Positions 9,947-56,837 of a stretch of 64,000 nucleotides of DNA are shown here, piece by piece. Source of the DNA: Psammoneis japonica. Taxonomy: Eukaryota. Under the pieces are notes generated by a model. That model searched no databases. It worked only from the letters and a program-made list of their open reading frames with translations, and had not been told where the DNA came from. Each line of letters begins with the position of its first letter. Position 1 is the stretch's first letter. Location of the stretch: NCBI GenBank assembly GCA_008632985.1, contig QPGO01000045.1:62001-126000 (forward strand), read 5' to 3'. Both the position numbers and the translations under genes were made by a program.

Positions 9947-10298
9947 GTTGGACAGATAGAGTCCAGCTTGCGTATACTTTCAACGCCATTTTCAGCTGGG
10001 GACCTATCTGTCTCCAAGTACATGTGTATGTGTGTTGGTGTGCTTGCCATGATATTCAGAGAAAGAATAGCTTGACAATGTTGTAAATAATAATCAAGCT
10101 TGAAGTATGTGAAGTACGTTCTAACCAACAGCTTTTCATTTGTCCACTTAATGAGGTATCATATGAGTCGTAGACCGTTCGCTCCTAGCTCCTATCCCGC
10201 ACGAATGTTGTCAAGCAGGAACTTGGCTTAAGCTCTAGCTTTCGTGCTTTTAAGTAAAACAAACAGGAACATAATGAAAAGTTTGAAAGAGTCTTTTA

Positions 10299-12470: not shown

Positions 12471-12474
12471 CCAA

Positions 12475-12900
12475 TGATGAGGTCAAGGATGGCTTTGGAG
12501 CCTCGGAATGCTTTGGAAGATGAGGCTGTTGTTCCAGATGCCAGAGCCTTTGAGGTTGCCACATCGCTGCACTTGACACAAAAAGTCTTGCCCGCCATCA
12601 AGGGCAAGTCAAAATTGGGAAACCAAGCCTTTGTCAATGCTCTTTTGATTGTCCCCAAGATGCTCAATGGAAATTCTGGACTTGATGTCCAAGGCACCCT
12701 CTTTTATTTGCAAGAAGAATGGCAATTGTCCGAAATGATGGTGGGTCTATAGACGTCAAGACGGGGAACCAGTCTTGCCAGCAAATGAAGGAGTCTGAGA
12801 CAATGCCCTTAAATCTGTCCACCACATTGGCCAGTCAACTGTTGCTGGTGGACGAAGTCATGCGCACTGGAAAACAAATGGGACAGCAACCCCAATTGAC
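12475..12900 (+). pseudogene. CCT6: Degenerate C-terminal fragment of chaperonin CCT-zeta (T-complex protein 1 subunit 6)
   Basis: 'NALEDEAVVPDARAFEVA', 'KGKSKLGNQAFVNALLIVPKML..NSGLDVQ' and 'ASQLLLVDEVMRTG' follow the CCT6 C-terminus. The fragment is frameshifted and has no N-terminal part. Confidence 0.8.
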
Positions 12901-19354: not shown

Positions 19355-19719
19355 GGGTATTCAAGAAGTACACTATCACTAAGCCTAGGTAGAGTTCAAC
19401 GTGTTTGCGGCTTTTCGCTATCACGAGCCCACCAATCACCAGTAGCTTCTTGGCACTCTAGCTCGGTTCTTCTTCGTTGACCGACGCAACTACAGCATGT
19501 CTCTCCAATAAAGCTTTGTAAGAGAGCGGATAACTGCTGTATTTAGCTTTCAATTTTGCGACTTCGTTGACAATGGGCTCCATACGGTGGCAACTGTCAA
19601 TTCCTTGATGATCATTGTACCGTTCGAGATCCCAGCGCGTCCGTGTGAAGAAACCCTCTGGATCAGGCATCAGTCAATTTTCTAGGTTCGATTCTATTCT
19701 AGCCGTGGTCGTTGTCATT

Positions 19720-21410
19720 CTTGCAACACAATTGCGTCAGATGAACTCGTTGTGGAAATGGCCACATTGCACCTGCCAAGGTGGGAAGACATTTGTTGGG
19801 TGCAAAGGGCTCTCGCACTAACTTCACTCCTTCCAACAGACCAACCTTCACCGATGCACAAAGACCTGTTTCTGTCATTGTACCTTGTGCAAATTCTCCC
19901 TTGAATGATTCCACCTCCAAAGATCGACAAATGACAAACCTGTCAATTGATTGCCCCACCTCAGCATCAAAGAAACATCACTCTGAACATGAGAGGTCTG
20001 TCTGTGAGAAGCAGACTTTTTGTCTGGCATCGGGTCACCATCACACTTTCTGACAGGAAAGGAAAAACAAAATCTTTTTTCAAAAGTGCTGCTGCACTTC
20101 CACCCAGCAACTCCGGCAACAATCTGGCCCACACCCCAAGCCCACACACAGTGTGCCACCCCTGCCAAACTCTCAAGAACCACAAGGAAACAAAACATCA
20201 ACCACACTGTTGCTCTGGTGGGCCACATTTCAGAGGCTGTGGTCACACACAACCACATTCCAGGAGAGCAAGACATCATCATGCACAGCGCTGGACAAAG
20301 GAAAAGATCAAAACTGACGCTGATTTGCAGAGGAGATGCAGAGTTTGCTTGAAAGCTTGAAACTTGCCAAATTTGACCAAAAAACCAGGTGTCCAGTGAA
20401 CTGGTCAAGATTTTGCTTGCTTGAGGTGGCCGGCACTTGCCATCCTTGGGAGACATCATCTCTCAACAAGAAAAGACAAAGCCCTGATGTCACCAGAGTC
20501 ACTGTTTGCCACATGAAACTTGGCTTTGTTGGCCTTGCAGAGCACCAACTGTGCTTCTGAGCTTGATTTTGTTTGGCTTGCATTTGACATTTCCTCCATT
20601 GACACCATGACAAAAATGTCTTGGTTTTCTTCCTCCTGGCTTGCAGAGTTGGCTTGACAGTGCTGCACACCCAAATCGACACAGCAGCATGGACGCTGCT
20701 TGAAAGCCAGTTTTGGCAACTTGACTGTGCAATCATGCACCAACAGCCTGGCTCAGAGTTGCGTGAAGCTTGACCCTGCAAGCTGTGTCTTCTTGAGAGC
20801 ACGCTGACACACACAAATGGCATCAAGAGCAAGCCAAGCCACCGCTTTTCTTGCGTTGTCTGGCAAGGACCCCCCAACAACATGATGGGCTCTTGTCCAG
20901 AAAACCCTGAAAAATGAAATCTCTCAAGTGCTGCAGTTGTTCAATGGTGGATCCTAAGTGGCATGTGCCTGCACCACATCATCATTGGCGACAATGCCAG
21001 TTGCCCAAGAGGACATGCCTCCTTTTTCTCACAGCAGCCGTGCCCAGCGCACTTTGCAAAGCACATCGATGCTGTTGCAAGATGAGTTCCATTCAGAGAA
21101 AGCATTGCCAGTCCATCCTGAAAAATTGCTTCACTGTGTTTTGTGCCAAAGCACAGGCTCTGTGGTGAAGTGAAAAGAAGGTTTTCTGCAGCTCAGCCGC
21201 CACGCACGAGAGACACCCGCGCCTGCTGTCTCGCAGCCCCTCCCCACAGCTCTCTTGCAGCAATTGGGCAACACAAATCATTCCACTCTCTTGTTGCTCC
21301 AGCATGCCCAAGGCTTCTGAGTTGCATCATCTATTGGTTCTTGAGACGAGACATCATCATGGCCATCATCTTGTGCAATTGCGTTTCGTTGACCTTTGAC
21401 AGATCTGCCA
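19720..21410. other. Hypermutated block, possibly an eroded minus-strand gene or TE
   Basis: Depleted in both CG and TA. An unmutated minus-strand ORF end lies directly adjacent at 19458-19670. Confidence 0.45.
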
Positions 21411-21591
21411 TTGGTTTATGAGGGACGAATTTTCGCGCGAAACGGTTGGTCTTCGCGCGGGTTATTTGCGCGCACACCAATCCCCAACGCACGCATCCAA
21501 CACCACGCATGCACAATGCTCAATGAATGCACAGCGCTGTTCGAGGTTCGAAGAGTGAGTCGTTCGGTGTCTCTGTTGGAGAAGGTCCACC

Positions 21592-22649
21592 ATGACGGGT
21601 CAAAAACGCTTTTCGCTTGTTCTTGCAGTCCATGCACTGATCATAGTTGAGTTGGTAGGGGCAAGACCGGGAGAAAGCACAATCCCGAGGTCGTCCAATC
21701 ATCGGTTGGCCTCCGTCGACGATTCCTCGCACACTCATCCTCCGTGGAACCCATCGGAACAAATCGACGATGATGGCTTCTTGAAAGAGAGCTACTGGCG
21801 CTTGCCGGGTGAATGGGAGAAGGAGGCAGACATTGGAGGAAAGCACGGGCCCAAGTCGCGTCGTTTCAAGCAATTTCCTGAAATCCCAGTCACTGTTCGA
21901 CAAGTTCCCGGTGACGGCAACTGTCTCTTTCATTCCATAGCGACATGCCTCGCCTTTGTTATTAACGGAACACACGTTTCCATGAAAGACACGGAACGCT
22001 TACGGGAAACTTCGGCTTGTCTTCGCCAAAAGGCGGTGGAGTGTCTAGAACGATCTCCGCGTCGTCTCCTCTTTTTGCAGGGCAACGAGTATCTTCGAGC
22101 TAGAGACTTGGTAGATGCTGCTGCGGCGCAATACGACTTGACGGGAGAACGGTATTGTGAACTCATGAAAAAGGAATCCTATTGGGGTGGAGGTCCAGAA
22201 ATTGTAGCTCTTTGCAATGTCTTGAAAAGACCGATTCACGTGTATGAGCTTGCGACACACCCCAAAACAATGTCAAGGCGCAGCAGTTTCGTTTGAGACG
22301 AATGGCGTGCTTTGGATCTCCAAAGTATGATCGACGAGAGCCACTTTGCATTTTATCAGCCGATTCTAGGTTTCCGGATGTTCCTCCTGGGAAGCAGCTG
22401 GCCAGCGGCAATCATTTCTTGGCCATGTTTCCGGCCTCTGTTGGAAAGAGTCGTGTTATTCGCGGTGGGGGGAGTTTGCGGCGGAAGCAGACACAAAACG
22501 AACAACAAGAAGAGGAACAAAGGGAACGTGTTAAGGATAAAGCACGCCGGATCAAGGATTCTGCGACGAAAACTTTATTTTCTTCGCAGAACGTTCTAAG
22601 CTCCGCATTTCAAAAATTCTCGAGCAAATGGTTGCCCAAAGGAATATGA
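21592..22649 (+). CDS. OTU-like cysteine protease with signal-like N-terminus; apparent 1-nt frameshift near 22260
   Basis: 'VPGDGNCLFHSI', 'WGGGPEIVAL', and the catalytic 'GNHF' in the following frame. Confidence 0.85.
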
Positions 22650-23560: not shown

Positions 23561-23859
23561 AGTGTGGCTCCGGTATGTATCTATCTCGCGCGATGTCGAT
23601 GGTCAGCTCAGAGCCAAAATTCAAGAATGACTCTGAAGACTGCATGGTGTTAAATAAGAATGTATCCATTCCACGATTACTGTACAATCAACTCCACGAT
23701 TAGACTTCAAGATCCGTCTATCTCACGCACGGTCTTCGTGTGTGCACAATCGACTCCACGACACCGGTGAGCAACTGGACACTTCAAATCAAAGAAGATC
23801 TGTCTCTCAAGGTCTGTGTTGCGCACTCTGCTCTCTACCGGTAGAGTAGAGAGGGCCCC

Positions 23860-25640
23860 ACTTCTTCTCGTGCTTGTGCACTGTGGTGCAAGCAACATGA
23901 CATCGTGTGCCAACGCTGGTGCACATTCTTGGTGATGACTCAGGTGCTGCCAGCCTCTTGCAGCCAGCCACTGGACAGCGTTCCCAAATCACCTTGCAGC
24001 TCATGGGTCCCCTGCTCTCCACCTCCTCAAGATCCCCGCATGGTTGGTGCAAGAAGAGTGGCAGCATCATGCGGTGTCCGTTTGCAGAGTGCACAGAAAC
24101 TCAGGATCAGCAAACAGCGCGAAAGAGCAAACCCTGCCTCACTTGCACCACAAACACATCATGGCCTGCAACCTTTCCAACAGCAGGAGGGGCTGCATGC
24201 GTGCATGGTCAAAAAGATCTGTGCGGCTCTTGCACAGAGATCACACGTGCCATGGGTCAGCGACAAACCTCTCTCTGTGGTGCAGAAAGATCACACAGCA
24301 GTGCACACTCAGCATGACCCCCAAGCAATGTCAAGAGGTTGCTGTGCTCATTTTCTGCACATGAGAAGATGACTCATGATGTGTGTCAAAACAAAAAAAA
24401 GAGTGCAGGCCAAATGAGCACAGGCTGTAGAAGTGCACTGCCGTGCCTCCTCTTGTGTGGCCAGGGAGTGTGCAGCCAGCCACCTCTTTTCTCACAAGTG
24501 CTGTGTTTTTTCACACTGAACATCTGCCCCTGAGCATGTTGTGTGTTGCAGCTGCAGATGCTCCCAAGCAGCCAACACAGTGCTGGGTGTGGGCACAACA
24601 TCTGTTCTGTGGTGCACGGTGCACCACAAGCTGCCATGTTGCAAGAGTGGCGCGCCTCTTTTGTCAAGGCTGAAGCCTCAAATGAAGAGGGGTGGGCACC
24701 ATGTTGGTTGGCAACTTCTCAAATGGGCACAATGGGTGCTTTTCTCAAACCCACTGGAGGCTCTGCCAACCAAAACTCCCATCATTTGTGCTGCACTGGA
24801 AGCACAAGGGGGGGGGGGGGCACACAACACACCAAAAACCAAAGGTGGTGAGCCTGCCTGCAGCAGCTCCGGTGATCTGCAAAAAAGGAAAATCAACACA
24901 TCAGATCTCATGGAAGCAATTTTTGCAGATTTCATGTCTTGCTCCTCACATTTTGGCATCTCAGCTCAAGTGTAAAACAGCATGACAAGAGAGCTCAAAC
25001 ACCTGGATGGCATCATGCACATTTCCAGCAAAGTGCACAGGCCCCCTTCAGTGTGGGCTCTTTTTGTTCAAACGCAGAAGGGCTCTGCACACAGTTTGCA
25101 CACAAGCATCAGTGATGTGCAAATTGCAAAATGTGTCTGTGTGTGTGAATTTGAGCTGAGCCCAAGTTGTCTGCAGCAGTTGCACAGGCTGCACTCCTGC
25201 ACTTGGGCATGAGGTGTGGCTGGATTGCACACAAATAAAATCCACCACAGCTCGCCACTTGGGTGGTGCTGTGTCTCCAATGGCAGGTGCCTGAGCTCCA
25301 GCAAAAACATTCCTCATGCTTCACAACACCTTCCCCAGGCAAGATGGGTGCCAGGTGTGCTTGTGATGCAAGAGTGTGTTTTTGGGTGAGCTGTCTTGTT
25401 GGGCATCTGAGTGCCAGCAGCAACAACAAATCTGTGCCAGCCTTTGCCTGTCCACTGGGAGTGATTCCATCCAAGGGCACAAACCCAAAGATGGAGGCTC
25501 CAAAGCACCACTTGCATCACACAACTGCTTGATCCCGTCAGGATTGGGCCCGTTCTCAATGTTGCAATCACATGGGCTGAGTGACGCCACTGCATTTCTC
25601 GAACAGATGAAAGAGTGTCCAGGTCAAAAAAATCCACTGT
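23860..25640. mobile_element. Hypermutated repeat-derived block between the duplicated segments
   Basis: Near-complete loss of TA and strong loss of CG. No recognisable domain. Confidence 0.5.
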
Positions 25641-25741
25641 AGTTCAAGAACTGTGGGCAAGCAATTTTGAATTGATGTAACGTGCAGGCTATGGATTGAT
25701 CGGTAAGCTTAAAGCCGCAGGATCAATGCGCTAGTCCTCGG

Positions 25742-26750: not shown

Positions 26751-27719
26751 ATGTACAGGATGCTGGATGATCGAAGAGTGCAGTATTATCCGTTACCGTA
26801 GAGAGAATGACTCTTTCTTTCCTATCAAGACTGGAATTAGATCAATTATGTCCATTTCACGGTTAAGCGCCTATCTTTTTCAATTGATCGCGCATGCCGG
26901 TTCACGCTCGGTCAAGAAGATGACCCCGGCCCCCGCCCGCCACATTGCATGTCCGTCATGATGTATGGACATTGCACTTGCGTTGTTCTCGTGTGCGTCT
27001 CCTGTTGATCAAGGGATCAAGGGAATCCCTTTTGTTGATGTTGAGCCAAAAGGCGAGGCAGAAGATGCTTTGAAGGCAATCACATGAGCCACACTGTCAG
27101 GCCTCACAATGTTGTCAGAGCACCACACCAAAGCTGTCATTGTGTGCTGTGCGATTTCATGGTTGGCGTTGTTTTTTGGACTCTTCAGGGGCCAGCATGT
27201 GGCCATCTCCCCATCAATGACTCCTCTGGCTCCTTTGGAGTGAGTCTGTCTGTTCTCACTGGAGTCTCAAAATGTGCTGCTGGACATGTCAAAGCAGAAC
27301 TCCAGCAGCAGTGGCCCACACTGCGCGGGTTAAAAGCAGGAGGGTGGAGACCACCAAAAAAGATGACTTTCGAGCAGGCATCACATTTGGCCCTGTCTTG
27401 CCAGCACACAGAAAGACACTTGGATGGCAGCGTGTGTTGTGCTGCCTGTTTGCAAGTTGAAAGTTGAAGCTGTTTGTGGCCACATTTTTCCCAGTGCAGT
27501 GTCTCAATCTGGTGCCAAGTGCCAAGGATGGCGGCAGCACCAACGTCAGCAACAACAGGTTGTGTGTGCTGCCAGCGGCTCTTGTGAAAACTGCCAACAA
27601 GAACAAAAACATCTGTTCCACAAACAATGCATTCCTTGGTGGATTCTTTTGTTGTGCAGTGGAAAACCCCTCGTGGGGTGGGGCATTTTTTTTCTCCACA
27701 AGAAGCAGCCCCTGCTGTG

Positions 27720-30700
27720 TGCAATGTGTGTTGTTGTGCATGGACAAACACACATGTCCATGATTGCACATTGTGTCAGATGTGTCAATCTCACAACAAT
27801 CATGGATGAGACATCAGCATTGATCACATCCTGACAATCTGTTGTCACTGTTGGATGCTCCAAAAGGCCTTTGCTCTGCAGGAGCAGTGCAAAAGTGTTG
27901 GGCCATTGAGAGAATTCCTTCAAAGAATCCCACAATTGCAGTGCAAAATTTAATCTCACAATTTCCACTTTTTGTGATCTTTTCTGCTTTTGTTTGCAGC
28001 ACTCATCTTTTGAGCATGGCGCATTGTGTGTGCACACCACAGAAGGCAATTGCACAAAAATGAAGCTTTCACCCACTGCAATCAGTTTCAAGTCTTCCTT
28101 CATGCAAGAAAAAATTGTTCCTGTGCCATTGGAATTGATCTCTGAGCCAAAGACACACAAACCAAGTTGGCACCTTGAGATGGAGCAGTGTTTTCTCATC
28201 CTGAAGACAAGGAGAGCTGCGCCCACACTGAGAATGTCTCAAGTTCTGTCAGAAACAAGGTGTTTCCAAGTTCATCAAATTCCTCAAGGACTGCACTCAA
28301 CATTTGTTTGGCCAGAACATCAAGAAGCAAGCTGACAAGTTCCACCTGGTGCACACACTGCTGCAGGGAGACACTCGCCAAGTTTTTGAGAATGCTGCAG
28401 TGACTTTTGAATCCAAAGAGGACAAAGGAGGCTTCAAAAAATGTGTGCATTGCCTCTCCCAGTGCATCTTTCCAAAGAATGTGCTCCACATTAAAAAAAA
28501 ATGCCATTTGTGACATGATCTCAAGAAGCTGGAAATTGTGAAGATCTGAGAAATTGCCAATTGGGTCCAAGAAGTCAATGAAGACCTGAAGCACTGTCTT
28601 CCCTTTGAGTCAAATCAAGCTGTGGATGAAGAAGAACTCAAGGACATTGCACTCAAACTTGCAGCTTGCTGATGGCAGCATCAGTGGACCACCCAAGGTT
28701 TTGAAATTTTGAAGCATGCCTTTGATGAGTTGGTGGAGTTCTTGGAGCATCTGGTGGTTGCTGAGGACACATTCAACCAAGTCCATGCCAAGGGAGATCC
28801 TGGCAACAAGTCAGGTTTGAAAACCAAGGATGGCTCCACTCATGGTTCCAAAAATGGCCATCAATCTGGTGCCAAATTGTCCAAGTCTAACAAGCAGTGC
28901 AACAATTGCACAATGACCACTCATGATGTGGACAAATGCTGGATCATCAAAAGAGCAGCAAAGGAGCACCAGGAAAACTTTGAAAGAAACCCAAAATGGC
29001 AGCGTTTCAATGGCAGTTGCACGTGGTCACATGGCAACAGTGAAAATGCCTCTGCAAAAGAGGAGTTGAATGCCATGATCACTCAGACAGTTCAGAAAAC
29101 ACTCAAGGCAAGTTCCTCCAAGAAAGATTGAAAGTGCAAGAGCCAAGAATGTGGCTCTGACACCCTCAGTGAGGAAAACTGCCAATTTGAAAAATTGACT
29201 TGTCGCAATTCCGAGGAATGACCAGCACATGCAGAGGAAAATCACGTGCCACTGGACATTGAGAGACCCAGAAAAAGGGTCAAAGCAATGCACACCAGTC
29301 CAATTGTTGTTGCTTTTGTGAATGCTTCTCTTGGGGCAAAAAAGCAAAACAAACCTTTGTGTGTTCCACCCAACGGCGGAACATTGTCAACCACAACTTT
29401 GGGCAAATTTTTGAGGAAATTGAGAGTGAAAAAATCTGCCAACCAAACTTGGGAAACCAAGGGTGGACTCTTTACAACTGATGGTTGCTGTTCAATGCAG
29501 TTCTCATCACTTGAATTTGACAAGCACAAGAAAATAGAAGCTGCAACGCATGTTGGCAACAGTGCCACTTCTTCAAATTGCTGTGACATGATCATGGGAT
29601 GCAACTTGGTGAGCAGTCTTGGAGTCAGGCTCAATTTCACAAATGCAGAAATAAAATGGGAAGATGCAACAACACCCATGAAGAATCTTGGCACACTCTT
29701 TGATGCTGAAGTGTTCATGATGCTGACAGCCAATCAACTTGAGGAAATCTCATGCCATGAATGGTCTCAACAACAGGATCCACCACAAAATCCTTGATGC
29801 CAACTGCCATGCTGCCAACCTCAACAATGTGATGGCTGCAGCAACTCATCTCACTCCAGAGGAGCAAAAGCAACTTAACTTGCTCCAAAAAAACATTTGG
29901 GCCTCTTTTTGATGGTTCTCCTCTGGGCAAGTGGACTGGAAAACCAGTTGATCTTGTGGTGAAATCTGATGCAAGACTGCACCACACAAAACCTTTTCCT
30001 GTTCTGCAAGCCTTGGGGGCAATTGCATGGAAGGAGGTTGAAAGACTGTGCAAATTGAAGGTAAAAAATGAGTCATTTTGAATGGGCTGCTCCAACCTTT
30101 GTTCAACCAAAGAAAAATGGCAGAGTCAGATTCCTGTCTGACTTTTGTGAGCTCAGCAAGAGGAGGCCAGTGCGTGCTCTGTGTCCTCCACCCAACATCC
30201 GGGACATGCCACAGAAACTTGAGGGTTTCACACATGCAACCTCACTTGATTTGAACACAGGACACTGCCATGTTGAATTGACTTTGCACGCACATTGCTT
30301 GTGCACAATCGTGATGCTGTGGAGCAAGTGTGAGTGCTGCAAACTGCCTGCGGGAATCTGTCAAGCTCCGGATGTTTTGCAAGAGCACACGAGTGAGCTC
30401 ACAGCAGGTCTGGAGTTTGTCAGGACTCATGTTAATGACATGCTGTGCTTTGCAAAAGGTGACTTCCAAGACCACTTAAAAAAGCTTGAAACGGTGTTTT
30501 TGCGCCTTGAACAAGCTGGATTGAAGGTCAACATCAAAAAGGCTTCATTTGCCAAGTCCAAAGTGGATCATCTTGGCTTTCATGTCACCCAAAATGATGT
30601 CAAACCAACACCCAAGAAGACAGAGGCAATTCAAGCCATTGCAGTTGCCAAACCCACAAAGAATTGTGACATTTCAATGGCGTGATCAACTGTTGCCATG

Positions 30701-32600
30701 ACACATGGCCCCAATGGTCTCATTGCTTGCACCTTTGGCTAGACTCACCTCATCCAAGGTCAAATGGCAATGGAGAAGCACAGAACAAAAAGCCTTCAAT
30801 GACATGAAGCAAATCACATCAAAAGACATGTTGCCATCACATCCAAATTTCAATGAAACTTTTGAGACACATGCCAATGCAAGTCTCATTTGGGAGCAGT
30901 CATTGCCCAGAACAACCAACCTGTTGCCTTCTGCAGTCACAAGCTAAATGGAGCAGAGATGCAACACACAACGATGGAAAAAGAACTTCTGTCCACAGTG
31001 GAGACACTCAAAGAAGAACTCCAGAATGCACTGTTTGGCCAACAGACAAACATGTGCACAGATCATAAAAATCTTGCTCACAAGAATTTCACAATGGACA
31101 GAGTGTGTGTTGTCATCCAATGATGGGAAAATGCAGCCCCAAAATAATTTGCCTCAAGGGCAAGGCATGTCACTGCAGATGCATTCAGCTGACTTGCAAT
31201 GAAAAAAAAAACAGAACATGTGGAAAACCTCAGTGCTGAAGATTTGGCTGAGAAGGTCACACCAAAATCCTGCAACAATGTCCTTCCATTGACACACAAA
31301 GTTCTTGACATTGAACAAAAATGGGATGAAGACATTTCTCCAACTTGTTGGATGCAACATGTGACACATGGACTTTTTGTGGAGGCAAGAGAGACTGGAT
31401 GCTCCTGTGTTGCAAGGACAAAATTGTCATGCCAAAGACATTGCAAAAAGCAGTGTGTGACAGAGTTGCGTCATGCATGCCTTCTGCACCCTGGCATGAA
31501 TTGAGCTGAAGAGACAATCTCACAACACCCATGGTGGTCCACCTTGTGTGAAGACATGAAAAAATGCATGTCAAAATGTGCAACAGGATGGTTTGAAGTT
31601 GTGGAAATTCCAAACAAGGAATTCACAACTGTTGCTGGATTGCTGGAGTGGACGTGGCCAAGTGGACATCCTTGGCCATCGTCAATCACACATGACAGTG
31701 GAAGTGAGCTCATCAGACACCAGTTCAGAACTGTGGTTGAAGAGGACTGTGGCATTGAATGCAAGCCCAAAACTGCATGAAATCCACAAGCAAATGCCAT
31801 GATTGAGTGTGCGCATCAAGTGCCAGGCAATGTGCTGCACACATTTGACCTGCAAAACACACCCCTGGATGCAGAGGATTCTTTTGCTGGAATTTTGTCA
31901 GTGGCAGCCTTTGCAGTGCACTCAACACATCACACTGCTGTGCAAGCTGCACCAGGACAACTGGTCTTCAACAAAGACATGACATTTAATGTGCAACATG
32001 TTGCTGACTGGAAATTCATTCAGAGATGCTTGAGAAAATGCTCAATGCACTCCATGCACATGCAGAGTGGGAGAAAAGACATTGCTCAAGAAAGACCATC
32101 AAAAAACAGAACAGCCTCATGCTGGTGGGCCACGCATGATGACAACAGCACATGCTGATGGCACAGTGCAGATCAAATGTGGAGTTGTCGTTGGCACTGT
32201 CAACATCCATTGAATGACTCCATTCAATGATTGACTCCAATGTGCGGTTGGGGAGGCAAACGCAACATGCGTCATTGTGCATGGACAAAAAATGCACATG
32301 TTCAAACCAACTGTGTGTTGTTGTGCATGTCAGTTGCACAACAATCGTGGATGCATGCAAAGGTCAGATGGATCACACAGAATTGATCAGAAGTCTAAAA
32401 TTGCGGGTTCTGTTGTTGGACGATGTTGACACATGAGATGTCAATGTTGATTGCATCCAGACAATCTGTTGTCATGATTGGATTCTCTGAAAGGCCTTTG
32501 CTCTGCAGGAGCAATGCAAAAGCTTCAGGCCATTGAGAACTCATTTGGAGAATCCCCGGGGTCACAGTGTAAATTTCAATCTCACAACTTCAACTTTTCA
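27720..32600 (+). mobile_element. Degenerate Ty3/Gypsy LTR retrotransposon (5' LTR ~27720-27974, gag ~28040-29130, protease, RT ~29950-30650, RNase H, integrase ~31450-32020, PPT 32250-32260, 3' LTR ~32261-32600)
   Basis: RT 'EWAAPTFVQPKKNGRVRFLSDF', 'LEGFTHATSLDLNTGH', YxDD decayed to 'HVND'. RNase H 'PVAFCSHKL...EKELLS'. Integrase 'HDSGSE', 'NPQANAMIE'. Domain order is RT-RH-INT. The two LTRs align (e.g. ACAATCTGTTGTCA, AAGGCCTTTGCTCTGCAGGAGCA). Confidence 0.9.
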
Positions 32601-35600
32601 GGAGAGCAGCTGTCCTTGCCAGGCACCAGCATGGAGGAGGTGCCCATCACTTGTTGTGCAATGCACACATGTTGGGTGTGCTGTGGATCCAACCATTTTC
32701 AGTTGTCTGTTGTTCTTGTCTCCACTGCTTTTTCTGACTCTCTTTTGAGACTTGTCATTGATGAGAACAAAAAACAGCCAATGATGGTGGTGACTGGGGA
32801 TTTGCATCTGGTGGAGATGCTGCTGACAATCTCCCACAACACACGCAGATTGCATTGGAGGAAATGACCTTGATCATGATTTTCTCTGCCTGCAAAAAGC
32901 CTGGACTTTTCCTGGCTGACTCCAAGTTCCCAGATGTTGTCAAACAGTCATGCTGTGGGGACAGACATTCTGCTGTCAAGAAGATGCCATTTGATTGTTT
33001 GCCAGTGTGGCACAAGTGCCCCCTGTGATCTGATTTGCAGCTGCCCTTGCCAAAATGACTTGACTCTTCTCAATTGTCTTGCTCTGTTCAAGGATCATTT
33101 GCAAGTGTGCTGCATTGCAGCTGATGTTGATTCATCCTTGGATGAGTCATGGGAGCTTGACATCTTTGTCAGCAATGTGAAGCATGGTGACTGCCTTTGT
33201 CACAAGACCTCTGAAGCTTGTGAAGACAAGCAGAAGGCTCACAAGTTCAAGTCAAAGAAGATTGTTGAGACTTTGACAGCAGTCTTGAGTGAGCCTGACA
33301 GTCCTGCTGAGCACCCTGATGCTCCCAACTGTCTGAACCATCACATCTCAAATGAGAGCAACTGACCTCCACAAAACCCACACAGGAGAGTGAGCTCCAA
33401 CTAAAGCTCTTGCAAATGAGCCATTCATGTTTGACCCCCATCTCCAGAAGTTGTGGGTCCTTCTCCCTCTGTTGAGACAGACAACAAAGCTGTTCAAAGC
33501 CCTGGTCAATGAACTTGCCACCATGGAAATCCCTGATGATGACACTCCCCATGCTTCTCCATGGTCTTTGCACTGCAGGAACCATGCACCAAATCAAGCA
33601 GAATCCAATGGAGGCTGAGCACTGATGGTGCTTGGTCTGCAACAGCAAACATTGACATGCAGATTGTCCTTTCTGAACAATGCTGCCTTTCTTCATTCCC
33701 ATTTGATTTGATTTTGCAAGTTTGTTCAACATGAACAACACTCTCAGGATGCTGTTGCACTGCAAACAAACAATTGCTTGGAATTTCCTCCAGGCCATCA
33801 CTGACTTTGGATGTGCAATGCTGCCCAACTTTTGCCAACCCAAATCTGCAGAATGATTGTGCAGGGCAAATGTGAAAGAGGATCACCCTGATTCATCACC
33901 ACCTGCTGATGCTCCTCTTTCTCATCCATCCTTTGCCAATGACGTGCTCCACCAGGGTGCTTCAGATGCTCCTGATGTGGATGCCATTGCTGACAATGAT
34001 CCTGGGGAGGGCACAAGATGGCACAGAGGAGCCAACAAGGACTGCTCACATCTTCCATGCCTGACATTGGACATCTTGACTTTGAGTGTCTTGATGTGGT
34101 GGATGACTTGCCACATCTTGTGCCATTGAATTCTGTTTGCATTTCACCTGTTCTCTTGTTGTCAACTTCTCTTGCACTTTTTGACACCTTGGGTGCTCCA
34201 CCTGCTCCTGTCAATCACATTTTAAGTGACACATCCATTTGCCTGGCTCAGATTGACGCTGCAGCTTGGGTCTCTGGTGCTGGCCACTTGAACCTTGTCC
34301 ATCACCCATCACTGCCCACCTTTTGATGATGATCATCCATGTCCCGCTCAGATGTTGCCTGTGACAAAGGAGTGAGATGCAACTCCCCATGGACGTGGAT
34401 TCTTGCAAGTCCCTGCCAACAATGATCTTGGGTGCACATGTGTCCAAGCCTTCCAGCCACCACCCAAGCCTTCACTCTGCTCTCATTGATGAATGAGATT
34501 TTGCTCATGCACCCAGCATCTGTTCCCAAGATGCACATCTGAGGCACTTCAGAAGTCTCACAACATTTGCACTTGCTTGCATGTGGCAACTGGCAAATGT
34601 GACAAGCCACCTTGTGTGTCTGTTCCTGGTGTGCTGCAACATGGGAGAGCATTTGCCCAAGCATCGTTGCCACCTGCTGAGAAGTCTGCTCCAACTCAAT
34701 CATGTTTCCTGTTGCCAACAGTTGGAGCTGCTTTTGAAGATGGGTGACAATGTGCAGCTTCCTGCATTCATTCTTAACAGGAGCAGGACAACCAATGGCC
34801 CCACTTTTCAGAAGACCTCACTTTGTAATCCCTTGCTGCTGTGAAGATTGCCTCTGATCTTGAGGATGACACTTCACCAATTTTCCCCCTCAAGGTTGAA
34901 ACTGAGAAACTCTTGTGGCACCAACGTCTTGGTCATTCCAGTGGCCATTGTTTGCATCAGGCACACATGCATGTCAAAGAAATGCCAGTGTTTGCTGACG
35001 CAAATCCTGTCTTTGATGTTTGTCCCACTTCAATTCTTGCAAAACAGGCAAAGACTCCTGCAGGACCAAACTCCATTTGGTTGCTGCTGCCCAACCTCTT
35101 CAAGGTGGTTTGACCATTGATTGTGCTTTTGCTGGTCAGGACTCCAATGATTCCTCCCACACTGATGACTGCCTTGGTTTCAATGGTGAAACCAGCTGGA
35201 CTGCTGTGTGCAATCACCACTCTTGCATGTTCCACAGTGTTGCTTGGATCTCAAAAGCAAGTCCATTGAATTGCTTGTGCCACTGCCTCAAGAGACATTC
35301 TCTAAACTGTCATGATGGGCATGCACTTGTGGACCAGGGTGGCAAACTCCACAAGAACCCAAAGGTCTGGAATCCATTTCACAAGGAATTTTGACTGACA
35401 TTTGTCCCTCAGCTGCTGGTGCTTCCAATCAATGTGGACCTGAGGAACACTCACATTTGACTGTGGTGAATGCAACTTTTGATTGGAGCTGATGTTCCTG
35501 TCCATTTTTGGCCACACGCTTTTGATGATCCCTGTCTTTGGATCAAAAAATTCCATTCCTTTCAAGGATCAAGATGCAGCTCTGCTGATCACTGTTGCTG

Positions 35601-38492
35601 CTGGCAAAGTTGGTGATCTCAGTGCTCTTTGCGTGTTTGTTGGTTGTTGTGTTTGGGCTCAACCACCTGGAAAACATCCTGCCAACAAGATGTGTGGTCT
35701 TTCCAAAAAGGGTGCTTTCCTTGGTTTTCTTCCCAACGCTGCCATGAAGAACATCCTGTGGTGGGATCTGTCTGCTGACAAAGTCAAGATTGCAAAACAT
35801 GCCTTTGATGAAGGCATGAACAATGACCTGCCAATTGACAAACTTTCTCTGAATGTCATCCAACTCCAACATGCAGAGCAAGGCATGCCCCCCACCCCCA
35901 CCCTGCTGAGCCTTTGGACATGACTGTTCCTGAGTTTGCAACCTCATCTGGTCCTTTTGCACAGACACTTGCATGTGCTGTGAAATTTGTGTCTGCAGAT
36001 TGGACTTGTGGTCTTGAGTTTTTAACATGCAGCCTGATGGACAGAGCACATGCATTGGGTGTCAAGCCTGGCAGTCCAGCCTCTCAGCTCTTTTCTGCTT
36101 CTTGTGCCACATGCAACAAGATGCTGGGTGCCTGTTGCACTGAAGTTTTTTTTTCTTTGTGGATGCCAAGACTGCTCTGTGCAAAGTTTTTGATGAGTCT
36201 GTCTACCTTGTGAGATTGTCTGTGCACCAGAATGACAACTGCCATCAACCCAACTGCACTGTGCTTTGGAGGAATGCATGAAGCATGAATCAGGTCTCCC
36301 TGCTGAGGAAGCACATGTCCCTGAGATGGTGGCCTTGGATGATGTCCACCAGATTGCATTGACTCTTTTTCCTGACAATGATTTTTCTGAGGAAGCCACC
36401 CCAACTGACAAATTCTTCAACCACATCAATGCCATTTCATCTCAGGCTGTTGCTGGGGAGGGAGCAGCTCTTGATTGTTTCACATGTGCTTGTCTTGAAA
36501 AATTGACAGCTTGGCCAGAGTGGCAGGCTGGAGAATGAAGACAGCTGGACCAGCTTTGTCAACTTAGGATGTGTGGTCTCCAACTCAACCACAACCCCAT
36601 GGCACACATGTCATGCAAGCTCATTGGGGCTGCGCTCTCAAGCCCACTGGTCAATGCCATCCTCAACAATGTGGAGATGGCTCCAAGAAAGCTGTGCCAA
36701 CAATCCACTGTTTGACTTCAACAAGCTTTTCTTGTGCTGATCAATCCATCCAATGGCTGTTCTTTGCATTGAGTGCTGGTCTGACTTGTCATGTTTTTTG
36801 GGTGACACTTGTGATGCTTGTGCTCACTCACCTGTTCCTGCCAAAAGAGTCTTCATCTCTCTTGATGATGCACATCATGAGTGGCATTGAAATTGGTTTG
36901 GAAAAGATGTTGACCTGAGAAATGTCCTTCCTTTTCTCCATGCCCTTCAAGGTTGTCCTGAGGCAGGTGTGTTGTGGGAGAAGCACATCAGTTGTGCCTC
37001 ATCTGGTGTGAAGCTTTTGTTCTGCAATGCTGTGCATGACAAGTGTGTCTGCTCTGGGAAGTTCAATGGCATCAAGGTTTTTCTTCTCCATCAGATTGAT
37101 TGTTTTGCTCTTGCGTGTCCAACTGAAGATGTTGCTGTTGATGTTTTTGATTTTGTTGGTGAACTCTTCAGTGCCCCAATGAAGACACTCTTCTCTTCAA
37201 GTGCCTTGGACTGTGCACTGAATTCAATGGATTGAACATTGTCCAAAATGACAACTCAGTTGCTGTTTGCTGTTGCAGCTGCGCTGATTGTGTCTTCTTG
37301 CAGACTCATGGGTGGGATGCACCCAGCTCCAATGAGAGTGCTGTGGATTTCAAGGAGGCAACCCTGACATTGGTTGACTGCACTCCTGGGCTCTTTGCCA
37401 CTGCAGGTCCTGAGAAAGGCACTGATGCTCACAAAAAGATGGCTGCAAAGCATCAGCTCTAACATCAGTCTGTCCTTGGAGAGCTGATTTTTGCATGAAC
37501 TTGCTGCAATCTTGATGATGGCCACCCCATTGCAACCTTGTCCAAGTTCTGCAACATTGCTCCTGCTGACATGCACTGCAACTCTCTTTGCAGGGTTGCC
37601 AGGCACTTGCATTGCATGAAGGACTGGGGTCTCATGCACCAAAAAACCCACTGTGATCCTGGTCTTCCATCTCATGGTGCTCTTGAACGGCTTGAAGCTG
37701 ATCTCACATTTCCCAATTTCCCTGTTGCTTTGGATCCTTTCCAACTTCTTGGTTTTGTTGATGCAGCCCATGCAAACGCACACTCTGCCATCATTGGCCA
37801 ACCACTGGACATGCTCAGACTTTCAGCAGTTGCTGCTGTTGCATGTCGCTGTGCAGCTTGGACACTTGCCACTGTGCCAAGCTTGACAGAAGCTGACTTT
37901 CTTGCCAGTGTTGTGGGAACAAAGACAGCTCTGTGCTTGCACTCAGTTTGAAAGAACTCAGATTCCTGCAAAATGGTCTTGCCTCTCTCTTGATTGACAA
38001 CTTCTTGTTGGTGATCAAGATGATTGACCACCTTCTGGTTCCTGCTGAGTGGTCCACACATGTTGATGCCAGACAGTTTGCAATTCAAGACTGGCAGGAG
38101 GCAGGGGAAATTGTTGTTGGACACATTCCTGGTGTCATTGATGCTGTTGATGCACTCACCAAGGTGGTTGGGTGGGTGCTTCATGCCTGCCATGTTTGTT
38201 GATTGATGGGGCATTGTGGCTGATTTGGTTGGTTGATGTCTGCTTTGCTGCATCAACTGTTGTCAATTCTCTCCATGGACATTTTTTCTCTCTTGGTCTG
38301 TTTTGTCCCACTTCTTTCTTGGCTCTTATTTCTTCTTTGATTGGCAACCAGGATGCTCGTCAGGGGAGGGTGATGGCTGTTTGAGAGAACTGGATGTGCT
38401 GGATGCACACCCAGTGTGACTGCAGCACAGACATTGGCAGTCTCTCATCAAATCTCCAAACCACTTCCATCCACACCCATCTGTTCTCAACA
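32601..38492 (+). mobile_element. Degenerate Ty1/Copia LTR retrotransposon (protease ~34240, GAG-pre-integrase ~34910, integrase, RT ~36570-37300, RNase H ~37750-38200, PPT 38362-38370, putative 3' LTR 38371-38492)
   Basis: 'LWHQRLGH', 'DQGGKL', RT 'GDGSKKAVP' and 'LHQIDCFALAC'. RNase H 'GFVDAAHAN', 'TEADFLA', 'FAIQDWQEAGEI...HIPG..DAVDALTK..GWVLH'. Domain order is INT-RT-RH. Confidence 0.88.
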
Positions 38493-39935
38493 ACCCGCCT
38501 TTTTTCTGTTGACCAACAAAGTTCTTTGCTTTGCATGGAGAAAGCACTGCCTCAGTTGGTGCTCAAGGTCACAGAAAACAGTGTCCACATGTTGCAAGAT
38601 CTGACCTTCCCGTGCAAGATCCTTCCCGTGCAAGATCCAACATTTTTGCATCTGTGTGCATCAGAAGTTGTGACCAACATCCAACTCATCTCAACATTGA
38701 GCCACTCCATTCCACAACTTCAAATCCTGCATGGCCTCCTCTCTGCTTTGAGAGTTGACCACCATTTCTCTGTTTTTGCTGCAGCACTGGAAATTTCAAA
38801 AATGTGTCTTTCTCTTTGTTGCTGGCCAGTGCTCATTGAAGAAAAAAATCAAGGTGGCTTTTTGTTGTTGAACTGCACTCTGAATGTGACCATCTTTTGC
38901 TGTTGTGGTGTGGCTGGCTGCTGTGGTTGAAGACAAAAGAACACAACAAATCCCGTGTTGTGCACATTGTTTCCTTGTCCCCAGCAGCTGTCTCCCTGTT
39001 GGGCATTGCCAACAGATGGTGCCAATTCTGGCCAATCATTTTGTTCTTCTGCAGAAAGTGTGGGTTGGCCCACATCAGCTTTGCTTGTCAATGGTGTTGC
39101 AGCACCACAAACTCTGGATCTGCACTTTTTTGCCTCCCAGCAGGCGCTTCTGAAAAAGGAGTTGATCGTGCTCTTGGCTCCAATGAAGCAAGCAAATGTG
39201 CGGCCAATGCAGCCAAGAATCAGAAAAAAGAGAGATTGATTGCAGTGCTGTGGCAATCAGCAGGTTCCCCTGTTGTGAGAGCATCATAATTCTGGTCAAT
39301 TTGCCTGGCTGTTGGTGATTGCATTGATGGTGTTCACAGAGTTCTTGGGGTTAAAATGCACAAGTGCCAATCCACATGGTTGTCATGCCCTCTGCTGCCA
39401 CTGCCTTGGACTTGAGTGAAGAGACTGCCCTCTTTGACACCATTTGGGATTGTCTCTTTGCTGCTCTACAAACAATTGGACCACCGTCTGGTGCCTGTGC
39501 CAACTCCTCTGCTGCCCACAACAAACCTGCAAACCCAACCCTGCACTCACCCTCAAGTGCCCTGCTCATGCAGGCACCCAACTCAAGCCTGTTTCCTCTG
39601 CTGTTTCACCTCCAGCTCGCTGCTGCCCAGCCATCAATGCAGCTGTCCCAAACCTCCCCACCTCTCCAGCTCCTTGCTTGCCTGTCCCCAGCCTCAAATC
39701 TCAACCCTTTTGATGACACATGCACCATGCAGCAAGTGCCAAGCAGAAATTTGACGGGAACAACGAAACTCAACATGAGTCAACCCTCATTTTTTTAAAC
39801 CAAGCAGGCGTCCACCTCACTCTGTTTGCTGTTGATTGTCTGGGAGAGCATGAGGGCACTTTGCCTGCCCTGCTTTCTGTTTGGAGCCGCCGACCAAGAT
39901 GCTTTGGTTCCTTTCAACATCCAGCTGCCCGCGCG

Positions 39936-40077
39936 GCACTGCTTGCACCCACACCCAGTTCTTGCCCTCAGGGGTCTTCTCTGCTGCTGCTGCTGAGCAG
40001 CAGCAGGCACTGCTTGCACCCATGCCCAGTTCTTGCCCTCAGGGGTCTTCTCTGCTGCTGCTGCTGAGCAGCAGCAG
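39936..40077 (+). repeat. Tandem duplication, 2 x 71 bp, each ending in a (CTG)n-A-(GCA)n inverted motif
   Basis: Units 39936-40006 and 40007-40077 differ only at one CA/TG dinucleotide. Confidence 0.9.
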
Positions 40078-40911
40078 AGTGCCTCAACAACATGCCGCGC
40101 TTCTTGCTCTCACCCCACGCTGCCCTGCCAAGCCATCACCACCTCACATTGTTGGGGCCTCCAGAGGCTTGGCTTCATGGTCACCAAGTCTTTGGCTGAC
40201 CGGCTCGCCCATTGCTCCACCAAGCCACAGTCCCATCTCACCAACCGGTCCCCCAAACCAGACCCTTTCCCACCCACATGACTCTCACCGGCAGCAAGGT
40301 TGCGGTTACGGTTTTCACCCCTGTTCAGCGTCTGTCGTCTCCACCTCCCTCACCATTGAGTGACGTTAGTTGCCCGTCGCCCGTCGCGTCGTGAACTTTT
40401 CTCACCAGCAGCGCGAAGCGCGACACTTACTACAAATGCAAGACAATTGCGCGATTCACGTGCCCGAAGGTGGAATATCGTTGCCCGAAGCAACATTCTC
40501 CCTTCGCGCAGATGTCAATTCTACGTATGATGTGGTATCAAAATTTTCATTTTGGTCCCAGTCATTTCATCAAATGACCTTGTGGTACTCTCCTACGTGA
40601 TCTACGAAAATCGGAGCTTCGGGCTGGCTGGTACATTTTCTACAGGCTCTACGTGCGCGAAGCTCGAACTTCAACAATCACCCTGCCTTCGGGCACGTGA
40701 ATCGCGCAATTGTCTTGCAATTCGTAGTATCATAATGCTGTAAGGAGTATGAAATGGTTTCCGCAGCGCTCCGTATACCGCCGTGGAAGATGATTCTTCG
40801 TAGATTACTGGAATCCCAATACAGTAGACGAGAGACTTGCGAAACGTTGTGTGGCTTGTGTCAACCGTACAGTATAGGTATTCGACGTACCACATCTGAT
40901 CCATCGCCAAC

Positions 40912-52036: not shown

Positions 52037-53023
52037 CTAATCTTTCATAAAGAGTTGCGGGTTCCCGAGAACAAAGTAAAACATCAAGTCGGGCGAATCC
52101 TTGATTCTTCTTGTTGAGAGAAGATGCGTCCATACATACGGATGAACATTAGCTTCCGTCAAGAGTCTCCTGCCGGCCAAGTTTAATCTAGTGTAGAACA
52201 GCTTTTCCTGTTGGAGGGATGGGTTCAGCAGCGTGCCCAGAAGAAGAGATGTGACGACACTGTTTTGTCGAAGTCCATCTTGAACGAGTGCACGCTGGCC
52301 GTCCTTGCCAAATCGATTTTCGCACAACATGAGTTGCTTGAGGGTTCGATTGAACTTGAGATTGTTTGCCAGAACCTTGGCACCCTCATCGCCAATTCTA
52401 TTTCCGTTCAGAGCGAGTTCTGTCATCGACTTGTTTTGTGCAATACCCTCTGCAATGCCCGTGATACCCTCATCACCCACTTCACACCACGCCAAGTAAA
52501 ACACTTTGAGCGTTCTTGTTGCTTTGAAAGCATTTCCAAAAGCCACTGCACCGTCGTTTCCAATGGGATTATTGCTTAGGTACAACACTTCAAGACAAGA
52601 AGCGTCTCTTTCCAAGCTTCTGGCAAGGGCCATCGCACCGGCATTGTTAATCTCGTTATCGGTAAGAACAAGCTTCTTGAGTCCCGTCTGGCCCACCAGC
52701 GAGAGTGCATCAGTAGCAGCATCTTCATCTTCTCCGATGCGATTATCACGAAGCCCAACCTTCTCTACAGAAGTTCCATAATGTATGAGCGTATTGAATA
52801 AGGCAGTTGCACCCACAGCGCTAATGTCGTTGGAGCACAAAATCAGACTCTTGACGCGACTATTGGTTCTCAGGGCTCGCGATAGAGCAACCACGCCGTT
52901 GTCGCCCATTTTCTTCCCTGTGTCATAACCTGCCAACTTCAACTCTTCTGGCAAGGATGCATCATTCTGGGATATTCTCTCACACAAGCGGCTTAGCGAC
53001 GGAGAGATACGGGTGGACGCCAT
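52037..53023 (-). CDS. RNI-like leucine-rich repeat protein (NLRC3/LRRC74-like)
   Basis: 28-aa repeats of the form 'LxxLxLxxNxIGxxGAxALA' throughout. Confidence 0.88.
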   Translation of the reverse strand: MASTRISPSLSRLCERISQNDASLPEELKLAGYDTGKKMGDNGVVALSRALRTNSRVKSLILCSNDISAVGATALFNTLIHYGTSVEKVGLRDNRIGEDEDAATDALSLVGQTGLKKLVLTDNEINNAGAMALARSLERDASCLEVLYLSNNPIGNDGAVAFGNAFKATRTLKVFYLAWCEVGDEGITGIAEGIAQNKSMTELALNGNRIGDEGAKVLANNLKFNRTLKQLMLCENRFGKDGQRALVQDGLRQNSVVTSLLLGTLLNPSLQQEKLFYTRLNLAGRRLLTEANVHPYVWTHLLSTRRIKDSPDLMFYFVLGNPQLFMKD

Positions 53024-53289
53024 TGTGCACCGCCGCTGCGGTAAAGGCTCGAGCGTTTTCTGGTTGTTGTTGTTTTTTTTTTTTGCAGAATGGCTTTTCG
53101 CGATATCATACGTCTGTCACGAGCGAGTTCCAGTCCCGAGTAATGGCACGTCATGTTTGCTGCAAGGGAAAACGCTGGTGCATTATCCCTTGTTTGTTGG
53201 CTCCATCGCTGCTCTACTAGAGTGCCTACATCGAGAGGAGGTGCCTCTTTGATGTAATGTTTAGCTCTTGTGGGATAAAAGCTAGCATC

Positions 53290-56200: not shown

Positions 56201-56610
56201 CAATTCTGCTCTCACAGCAATGAGTTCAATGTTCATCTTCTTGACATCAGCCATGTCAATCAATGGCTCATGGCGGGCACGAACATTGTGCACTGTGCTG
56301 CTGCGCCACACATCTGAGGCAAGCAACATGTGAGGCTTGCAGCAGGAAACAACAATCACAAACTCTCACATGTAAAAAAAAGAGCTTTTTTGTTGACACT
56401 GCTGCCAGACAAGACCTCCAAGGTCATGCGCAATCAAGAGTGTGCCTTGAAAAACGACGATCTCTTCCCACGTCATGCCTGTGGTAAAAAGAGAAGAGCG
56501 AGGACTCCAGAAGTTTGGAGAAACAGGTCACAACTCAGCCATGTCTGAGCTGAAGCATGACCAATCGTGCACGCATTTGCAGCCAAGAAGGTTGGCATCA
56601 ATGACTCCTT
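53290..56610 (-). mobile_element. Hypermutated element with remnants of an XPG/Exo1-type nuclease and a possible SWIM-like Cys/His motif
   Basis: Minus strand: 'TQADP' ... 'FVVSGNSDFVMH' (XPG-I-like, ~55920-56010) and 'LMLSCGAHPRGLTGCGLKAA' (H3TH-like, ~55590-55660). 'ECMAMCK...ICTHG' lies at ~54490-54570. Confidence 0.5.
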
Positions 56611-56837
56611 TTAATTGTGAAGGGAGCTAGAATGTGCTTTGAAGTCGACACTTGCATTGACGGTGGCGCTTGCTGCGCGTTGCCGGTTATTGCCGTGTGC
56701 CGTTCGTCGACGGTCATTGCAGCAGACCGCTCGTCTACATACTTTTCTACGTAATTTTTGTACCGGTGTGCCCCGCCCCCGCCCCGCCGCCCCCACTCTC
56801 AAATCTTCTGTGAACGCGAGAACACCTTCATCACATC

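Follow-up and report, generated by a model that had tools for sequence, protein, structure and literature searches.

The window analysed here is a stretch of 64,000 nucleotides from the diatom Psammoneis japonica (contig QPGO01000045.1, positions 62,001 to 126,000). It contains eight blocks, amounting to 31,412 bp, in which TA dinucleotides are nearly absent, CG dinucleotides are rare, and TG and CA are in excess. Sequence comparisons indicate that the TA-free state is mutational rather than ancestral, with nearly all TA and CG steps turned into TG or CA by single transitions in dead retrotransposons and stray gene fragments. We consider it highly probable that the phenomenon is local and dinucleotide-specific, and that it occurs in situ, at the level of DNA and on both strands. 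Our explanation as a whole, enzyme included, is more tentative and falls slightly short of an even balance between belief and doubt. According to that explanation, CG steps would be lost by deamination of 5-methylcytosine (5mC) in methylated repeat DNA (the CpG limb), and TA steps would be lost by a local A:T>G:C hypermutation at TpA, of the type described for the integrated viral DNA of Bigelowiella natans (the TpA limb).

For B. natans, Mettrop et al. (bioRxiv 10.64898/2026.01.13.699255) report mutation-accumulation lines in which an integrated giant virus and a virophage gained 231 new mutations; 230 of them were A>G or T>C, and every one of these lay at TpA. According to the preprint, only some lines were affected, the rate in the viral regions was ~1000 times that of the genome, and TpA-poor coding sequences are enriched for reverse transcriptase (RT) and DDE domains. 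Its authors propose an ADAT2-like adenine deaminase. The first-pass annotation of our window, made from the letters alone, knew of no description of such a process in diatoms. This stands, as our searches of the literature open without subscription returned no report of TpA loss in diatom repeats and otherwise yielded the preprint or papers on fungal repeat-induced point mutation; the 2026 preprint had measured the process in B. natans. The phenomenon is thus no longer categorically new, and our analysis extends a very recent finding to diatoms. New here are its saturation, its timing after integration, the evidence that it can be separated from CpG decay, a preference for certain flanking bases and a footprint in environmental sequences. 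In the available text of the classic diatom retrotransposon paper and of a stramenopile epigenetics review, point-mutation footprints are not mentioned (PMC2806351, PMC3145265), and the available text of a Phaeodactylum mutation-accumulation paper gives CG, CC and TG as mutagenic contexts, not TA (PMC6604790).

Extent and boundaries of the depleted blocks

The blocks were delimited with a 500-bp scan and a block finder over the window, which totals 1344 TA and 2333 CG. Pooled, they contain 104 TA (observed/expected ratio, o/e, 0.05), 372 CG (0.21), 3573 TG (1.84) and 3464 CA (1.76). The main block (26865..40428, 13,564 bp) consists of nested dead Gypsy and Copia elements and unclassified repeat DNA, and holds 36 TA (0.04), 116 CG (0.15), 1629 TG (1.95) and 1457 CA (1.71). 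Two blocks extend beyond the window: that at 1..3208 (TA 0.05, CG 0.12) reaches past its start and harbours the longest TA-free run (1180 bp, at 1907-3087), and that at 58988..64000 (TA 0.05, CG 0.18) reaches past its end. The others lie at 10256..11300, 11617..12748 (TA 0.05, CG 0.21), 19701..21960 (TA 0.07, CG 0.54, with CG erased only within 19750-21195), 23837..25690 (TA 0.07, CG 0.21) and 53277..56612 (TA 0.06, CG 0.19). They match the seven blocks rich in TG and CA of the first-pass annotation, except that its region 10300-12700 comprises two blocks separated by a normal island of 300 bp. The G+C content of the main block (0.47) is not shifted, as expected if gains by TA>TG/CA balance losses by CG>TG/CA.

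Outside the blocks, composition is normal, as had been claimed for the neighbouring genes. Long open reading frames (ORFs) between blocks (24,737 bp) have o/e values of 0.51 for TA and 1.03 for CG, and the spacers (7,851 bp) have values of 0.70 and 1.06, respectively. Thus, the depletion is local and not a general trait of non-coding DNA.

The edges are abrupt: over ~100 bp, the TA count per 100 bp falls from 4-5 to 0-0.3. Change-point fits placed the TA and CG boundaries at most 135 bp apart at 10 of 14 edges; for the main block, they fall at 26875 and 40305 for TA and at 27000 and 40285 for CG. At three edges, the TA-poor zone extends 415-740 bp past the CG-poor zone. The first of these TA-only fringes (10300..10865, between the TA and CG change points) has 0 TA and a near-normal 4-7 CG per 100 bp. 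In the second (21195..21935), CG recovers at 21195 and TA only at 21935; this fringe lies upstream of an OTU protease ORF (21559-22293; OTU domain, E 7.2e-16) and reaches into its start. The third (23850..24265) likewise separates a TA change point at 23850 from a CG change point at 24265. The single reverse case, at 58550-59050, is an AT-rich spacer that is CG-sparse regardless. From these fringes, and from TA-only erosion in elements of other organisms described below, we infer that TA and CG are lost by two distinct processes, which in the window mostly act on the same territory. One system erasing both had originally been proposed; both dinucleotides are indeed lost in the blocks, but the fringes and the TA-only erosion elsewhere indicate two processes.

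Modified bases can yield systematic long-read miscalls, which raises the question of an artefact of base-calling, polishing or assembly at such bases. We compared the window with Logan contigs of sequencing run X1, built from X1 alone (word depth ~68); the runs that contain the stretch come from one sample. An X1 contig of 7463 bp matches 32523-39983 with three differing letters and two gaps, and the X1 contigs exclude an assembly or polishing artefact. The bases of the window are thus reproduced from reads, and, as far as could be tested, none of the four outcomes that would have refuted the first-pass annotation was seen. In addition, the same replacement of Tyr by His or Cys that marks the retrotransposons of the window is found in unrelated public proteins and in metagenome contigs. 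Of all the explanations considered, we find an artefact the hardest to believe. The four single-copy differences between the window and X1 (TG/CG at 30715 and 33658, CG/TG at 34665, TA/TG at 36566) all lie at hypermutable steps, three being CG<>TG and one TA>TG. The contigs of a second run, X2, from the same sample, match only the genic flanks and give no cover over 26569-39918; a third run, X3, gave no matching contig, and no RNA run was listed for the stretch. These gaps have no bearing on expression.

Mutations in host gene fragments and retrotransposons

Host gene fragments within the blocks provide natural controls. An intact leucine-rich repeat (LRR) gene on the minus strand (52037..53116; Pfam LRR_6, E 6.8e-26), of normal TA and CG content, serves as an unmutated reference paralogue. 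Its copy, a hypermutated gene fragment also on the minus strand, lies 7 kb away in the last block (59627..60600, the copy itself at about 59760-60600) and is 78% identical to 52430-53330. None of the 27 TA steps of the genic sequence is kept in the block copy, 14 reading TG, 7 CA and 6 otherwise. Only 2 of its 29 CG steps are kept, with 16 turned into TG and 11 into CA, and sites outside TA and CG have changed in 70 cases out of 569. The substitutions depend on the neighbouring base: A>G is found at 16/27 sites after T vs 12/141 after A, C or G, and T>C at 7/27 sites before A vs 13/149 otherwise. Similarly, C>T occurs at 16/29 sites before G vs 12/159 otherwise, and G>A at 11/29 sites after C vs 10/120 otherwise. 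No double changes (TA>CG or CG>TA) were seen in this pair, so that a single hit removes the target. Together with the Tyr codons described below and the TA-only fringes, the LRR pair bears out the claim that TA loss comes in addition to CpG decay and that, on either strand, transitions turn TA into TG or CA.

A second host fragment, of the CCT-zeta (TCP-1) gene, lies on the plus strand at 12501..12749, in the block 11617-12748. It was identified by phmmer against PDB as residues 398-478 of T-complex protein 1 subunit zeta (E 2.7e-14) and by Pfam as Cpn60_TCP1 (E 1.1e-9); only ~80 residues are recognizable. The idea that transposons alone are targeted must be abandoned, as the LRR and CCT-zeta fragments in the blocks are mutated too.

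The blocks resemble the products of fungal repeat-induced point mutation (RIP), a permanent, local hypermutation by transitions in which repeats are killed and their dinucleotide composition bears the trace. The polarity is nevertheless opposite, as initially noted. RIP changes C to T mainly at CpA and enriches TpA, whereas here, in sharply bounded islands, TpA is erased and C>T before A amounts to 5/65 in the LRR pair. Furthermore, RIP needs a duplication and mutates both copies, unlike here, where the genic LRR copy is untouched. The mutated host fragments and the spared functional LRR gene nearby speak for targeting by location and against a trigger by duplication as in RIP.

The same comparison bears on an explanation without targeting, in which a genome-wide neutral bias, or selection against TA and CG, would have acted longer on old junk DNA. 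TA is mildly low everywhere, including the ORFs, as this would predict. However, the composition of the spacers, the abrupt change points and the loss of all 27 TA of the LRR copy against few changes at its other sites are difficult to reconcile with it, and selection on the transcripts of elements full of stops is implausible. We therefore regard it as very improbable.

The main block contains a degraded Ty3/Gypsy polyprotein (29264..32231, plus strand), with protease, RT, RNase H and integrase regions interrupted by stops and frameshifts, which we traced by tblastn with the intact P0123 and P0126. Pfam recognizes RVT_1 (E 8.2e-7) and RT_RNaseH (E 1.9e-13). An exhaustive profile search with the RT ORF (30065-30682) collected 24,111 relatives. 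At all seven conserved Tyr positions of this ORF, defined by the presence of Tyr in 70% or more of 24 intact homologues, the residue is His (four) or Cys (three). Relative to P0123, none of 47 aligned Tyr is kept, 11 being replaced by Cys, 10 by His and 8 by Phe, and 11 of 57 Arg remain.

Further along the main block, a degraded Ty1/Copia polyprotein (34247..38214, plus strand) was mapped by tblastn with P0391 (1455 residues; PF13976, PF07727), over residues 295-1450. None of 40 Tyr is kept (10 His, 7 Cys, 11 Phe). Its gag_pre-integrs match (E 1e-5) is under Pfam's cutoff, and a Pfam search of six whole-frame read-throughs of 32700-39901 gave no match, the mapping resting on tblastn with P0391 only. 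The reported conversion of conserved Tyr to His or Cys in both elements is thus confirmed by these counts, the two residues arising about equally often, and the peptide strings quoted for it are found in the RT ORF; 8 and 11 of the Tyr, respectively, read Phe.

Among 28 inferred Tyr codons, the sense strand carries CA in 15 cases and TG in 13. The conversions struck either strand about equally. Editing of single-stranded RNA or cDNA would yield one outcome only on the sense strand, and the presence of both argues against it.

Two long terminal repeat (LTR)-like direct repeats on the plus strand flank the Gypsy body, at 27800..27975 on the left and 32427..32600 on the right. They are identical at 128 of 174 positions and discordant, TG in one and CA in the other, at 8 of 29 TG/CA steps. 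In a control duplicate of normal composition (22573-23504 and 25742-26669), such discordance is found at 3 of 90 steps. The two LTR-like repeats were mutated independently, after integration, and hence on double-stranded DNA. A contig joint 27808>32372 is present in run X1. The control is itself a direct duplicate of 930 bp (753/886 identical) that flanks the block 23837-25690.

The Gypsy element belongs to a multicopy family. Its summed X1 word depth is 500-1600 over 27637-32976 vs ~68 elsewhere, pointing to roughly 8-24 related copies of at least 90% identity. Of the 702 X1 contigs matching the window, 414 are 90-95% alike, roughly as divergent as sister copies would be if each had chosen TG or CA independently. 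At 32452-32453, other copies show neighbouring variants at a single TG step, T>C in seven contigs and G>A in six. These variants would be a TG vs CA discordance if carried by the same contigs.

Editing before integration would mean that retrotransposon RNA or cDNA was hyperedited, by ADAR-like A>I and APOBEC-like C>U conversions, and then inserted. Edges as sharp as those seen, within ~100 bp, would be expected from the insertion of a pre-mutated element, and ADARs prefer a 5' U. As in animal APOBEC3/ADAR hyperediting, which is driven by deaminases, there is a neighbour-base preference and retroelements are inactivated. Those enzymes, however, act on single-stranded intermediates and leave strand-asymmetric products, unlike the symmetric, post-integration changes found here (15 CA vs 13 TG in the Tyr codons; 14 TG and 7 CA at TA steps, 16 TG and 11 CA at CG steps of the LRR copy). 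The discordant LTR-like repeats and the mutated host gene fragments also argue against this scenario, and ADAR is a metazoan family. We give such editing hardly any weight.

To place the Gypsy element among its relatives, we used metagenome loci found with a seven-row alignment; the best 80 loci favour intact elements, and the eroded share is therefore no estimate of prevalence. In 78 loci of the same Gypsy clade, TA o/e ranges from 0.27 to 1.18 and none is TA-free. Thus, the TA-free state is not a family trait. In three loci (L049, L073 and L075), 9 of 10 RT Tyr are His or Cys and 9-10 of 14 Arg are kept; in two others (L053 and L070), 7 of 10 Tyr are replaced with Arg mostly kept. These five eroded loci have TA o/e values of 0.27-0.57. 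No Tyr is replaced in 56 of the 78 loci.

The 150 best RT relatives in public protein predictions include six (P0143, P0161, P0166, P0218, P0226 and P0259) that are Tyr-free or nearly so and rich in Cys and His. All 14 aligned Tyr of P0143 read Cys or His, and 12 of its 16 Arg are kept. In its half-eroded sister P0272, other residues stand in place of 14 of 18 Tyr, and 22 of 25 Arg remain. The P0143 family, with P0271 and P0272, comprises intact, half-eroded and fully eroded members. These loci and proteins indicate that the TA limb occurs alone outside this genome. A ‘Tyr-free RT’ may be a cheap screen for the footprint of TA loss.

A single enzyme for both limbs, either a dual A/C DNA deaminase or a RID/DNMT4-like enzyme attacking TA and CG, would account for the shared TG/CA sink and for the boundaries shared at 10 of 14 edges. 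Of 60 diatom species, 31 are reported to carry RID-related DNMT4 genes without assigned function (PMC9998398), and the B. natans preprint cites ADAT2 enzymes capable of deaminating A as well as C in DNA (bioRxiv 10.64898/2026.01.13.699255). Nevertheless, the TA-only fringes and the TA-only erosion with Arg kept (L049, L073, L075 and the P0143 family) are at odds with this proposal, as is B. natans, for which the preprint describes TpA only. Moreover, a 5'-T preference would predict the loss of TpC, not CpG. A common enzyme is in our opinion quite unlikely, and we retain two separate limbs.

Candidate agents of the TpA mutations

The CpG limb agrees with CpG decay by 5mC deamination, described at DNMT5-methylated diatom transposons (PMC9998398). 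It accounts for CG>TG/CA changes within sharp limits in repeat DNA, and in the LRR copy 27 of 29 CG became TG or CA. Such decay cannot remove TA, unlike the process seen here, in which TA is lost. CG steps surviving in the cores of the eight blocks are skewed in context: GCGC is found at 3.0 times its genic share and ACGC/GCGT at 1.8 times, and TCGA, CCGA and ACGA are depleted. Two readings offer themselves for this skew: the CpG limb may favour certain flanking bases, or GC-rich patches may be unmethylated.

For the TpA limb, we propose that adenine in 5'-TA-3' would be deaminated to hypoxanthine, on either strand, by an enzyme brought to silent chromatin. This enzyme would work best with a pyrimidine after the A (TAY) and worst at TAA/TTAA. 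Replication would then fix the resulting I:C (inosine-cytosine) pair as G:C. One hit would give TG or CA and abolish the target, making TG/CA the sink state of both limbs. We chose adenine deamination as the simplest chemistry for A:T>G:C, and also because a 5' pyrimidine is accepted by TadA/ADAT-fold deaminases. An adenine deaminase as the TpA agent is a plausible candidate, although we lean somewhat more to doubt than to belief.

Our observations share several features with the B. natans preprint. In both, A:T>G:C transitions affect TpA on either strand (in the LRR copy, 21 of 27 TA now read TG or CA), and TpA depletion is paired with a gain of CpA and TpG. The effect is also local in both, being confined there to foreign-derived regions and here marked by a TA o/e of 0.05 in blocks vs 0.51 in ORFs and 0.70 in spacers, although host gene fragments are hit here as well. 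There are also differences. The host there is a rhizarian chlorarachniophyte and here a stramenopile, and new mutations were measured there, while fixed substitutions are read here. Depletion was partial there (rho 0.45 for the nucleocytoplasmic large DNA virus, NCLDV, sequences) and is near-saturated here (0.05). The preprint reports no CpG limb, whereas CG o/e is 0.21 in our blocks, though TA-only fringes exist. Lastly, the preprint text mentions no flanking-base preference, unlike the one proposed here.

That preference comes from the 76 TA steps that survive in the block cores, across all blocks. TTAA accounts for 25 of them (33%) and CTAA/TTAG for 19; among genic TA, the share of TTAA is 3.8%, and it would be 8% had the surviving steps newly arisen from CA or TG. 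ATAC, ATAT and GTAC together, which make up 34% of genic TA, are not represented. The surviving A is followed by A in 59% of cases (genes, 21%) and by C or T in 19% (genes, 59%). Relative to the shares in intact loci, ATAT is depleted more than any other context in the partly eroded metagenome loci (0.05) and CTAG is the best preserved (3.0), with CTAA also enriched. Judging from these survivors, TA followed by a pyrimidine, which on the other strand is TA preceded by a purine, is probably the preferred target. A rule according to which flanking bases choose the strand that is struck was not clearly borne out by the few available events, 21 in the LRR pair and 28 Tyr codons.

Several points weigh against the interpretation given above. 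A>G is indistinguishable from T>C on the opposite strand, so that adenine deamination is a choice and not a result; of the ‘A-to-G at TpA’ first proposed, the enrichment after T stands, and it could equally be read as T>C before A. In this organism, TpA mutation is deduced from fixed substitutions, the one TA>TG difference between the window and X1 being the sole hint of new mutation. The genic LRR copy was taken as ancestral, though it has evolved too, and the LTR identification is based on a 175-bp repeat around the Gypsy body. X1 may be the assembly's own sample, and hence no independent isolate. Regarding the flanking bases, the refractory context is TAA in the window vs TAG in the metagenome loci. 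Outcomes read directly from the LRR pair and Tyr codons do not clearly agree with the preference deduced from the survivors: TAG is avoided (10 vs 2), but contexts involving TAA are split about evenly.

The strand ambiguity makes room for a modification of thymine. A TET/JBP-type dioxygenase would mark T in the TpA of silent DNA as 5-hydroxymethyluracil (5hmU), possibly oxidised further, and mispairing with G or misrepair would result in T>C. TA loss would then be the trace of an epigenetic mark, as CpG loss is that of 5mC. The data, being symmetric, accommodate T>C before A no less than A>G after T. Like CG, TA is a palindrome, and the boundaries of TA and CG loss mostly coincide. In dinoflagellates, another lineage of the Stramenopila, Alveolata and Rhizaria (SAR), 5hmU is found on repeats, prefers TA and TC, and marks and silences transposons (PMC11572971). 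In contrast with the dinoflagellate preference, TC is not depleted in our blocks (o/e 0.98), and the available text of that paper mentions no mutational footprint. In addition, 5hmU is only weakly mutagenic in the T>C direction, and we know of no 5hmU or TET/JBP enzyme in diatoms. We consider thymine modification unlikely, though it is the main rival, and adenine deamination remains our preferred reading.

A related speculation, which we also hold to be doubtful, is that the silent DNA of diatoms and other SAR algae bears, beside CpG methylation, a second symmetric and copyable mark on the palindromic TpA, of which TA loss would be the footprint. If so, the TA-only fringes and the TA-only eroded metagenome elements would represent this mark without 5mC.

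DNA polymerase eta, which favours WA motifs and had been listed among the initial candidates, is disfavoured. In the LRR pair, A>G after A is found at 5 of 42 sites vs 16 of 27 after T, and AA has an o/e of 1.28 in the main block.

If our interpretation is correct, TpA-directed hypermutation of unwanted DNA is not peculiar to one chlorarachniophyte, and operates to saturation in diatoms, which are major and genetically tractable primary producers. Near-saturated blocks give sequence detail beyond that of a mutation-accumulation study, which narrows the search for the enzyme. The footprint, in the form of Tyr-free RTs and TA-free islands, might serve as a simple genome-wide marker to map the activity across eukaryotes and metagenomes.

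Other features of the window

The genes flanking the blocks are of ordinary eukaryotic types and code for a queuine tRNA-ribosyltransferase (TGT), an MRG protein, a SulP transporter, a ubiquitin hydrolase, a hexokinase and the LRR protein. The named relatives of the TGT protein are from diatoms, the best being that of Chaetoceros tenuissimus (68%), with a sandfly entry (52%) as the sole exception. In addition to the LRR copy, the block at the end of the window contains a Gypsy RNase H remnant (60867-61025, minus strand), detected by tblastn with P0138.

As TAA and TAG are nearly gone from the blocks, TGA is the sole remaining stop, and many long, overlapping frames are open on both strands. 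A gene caller could take these spurious frames for genes, although Pfam recognizes very little in them. For annotation, this means that TA-free islands conceal transposons from domain searches and produce long reading frames closed by TGA only. We looked in PDB for relatives of two further ORFs, and found none for that at 11729-12466 and no noteworthy one for that at 12686-12961.

An open frame of 969 residues (14785-17694), for which no Pfam family was found, sits in a strong purine excess of the plus strand (GC skew of 0.19 and AT skew of 0.23 over 16001-18000). Lastly, tandem repeats of ~180 bp are present at 41141-41676, within an ORF of 550 residues (40900-42552). The X1 and X2 contigs deviate from the window in these repeats, one of them going back by 156, which suggests that the copy number may vary.

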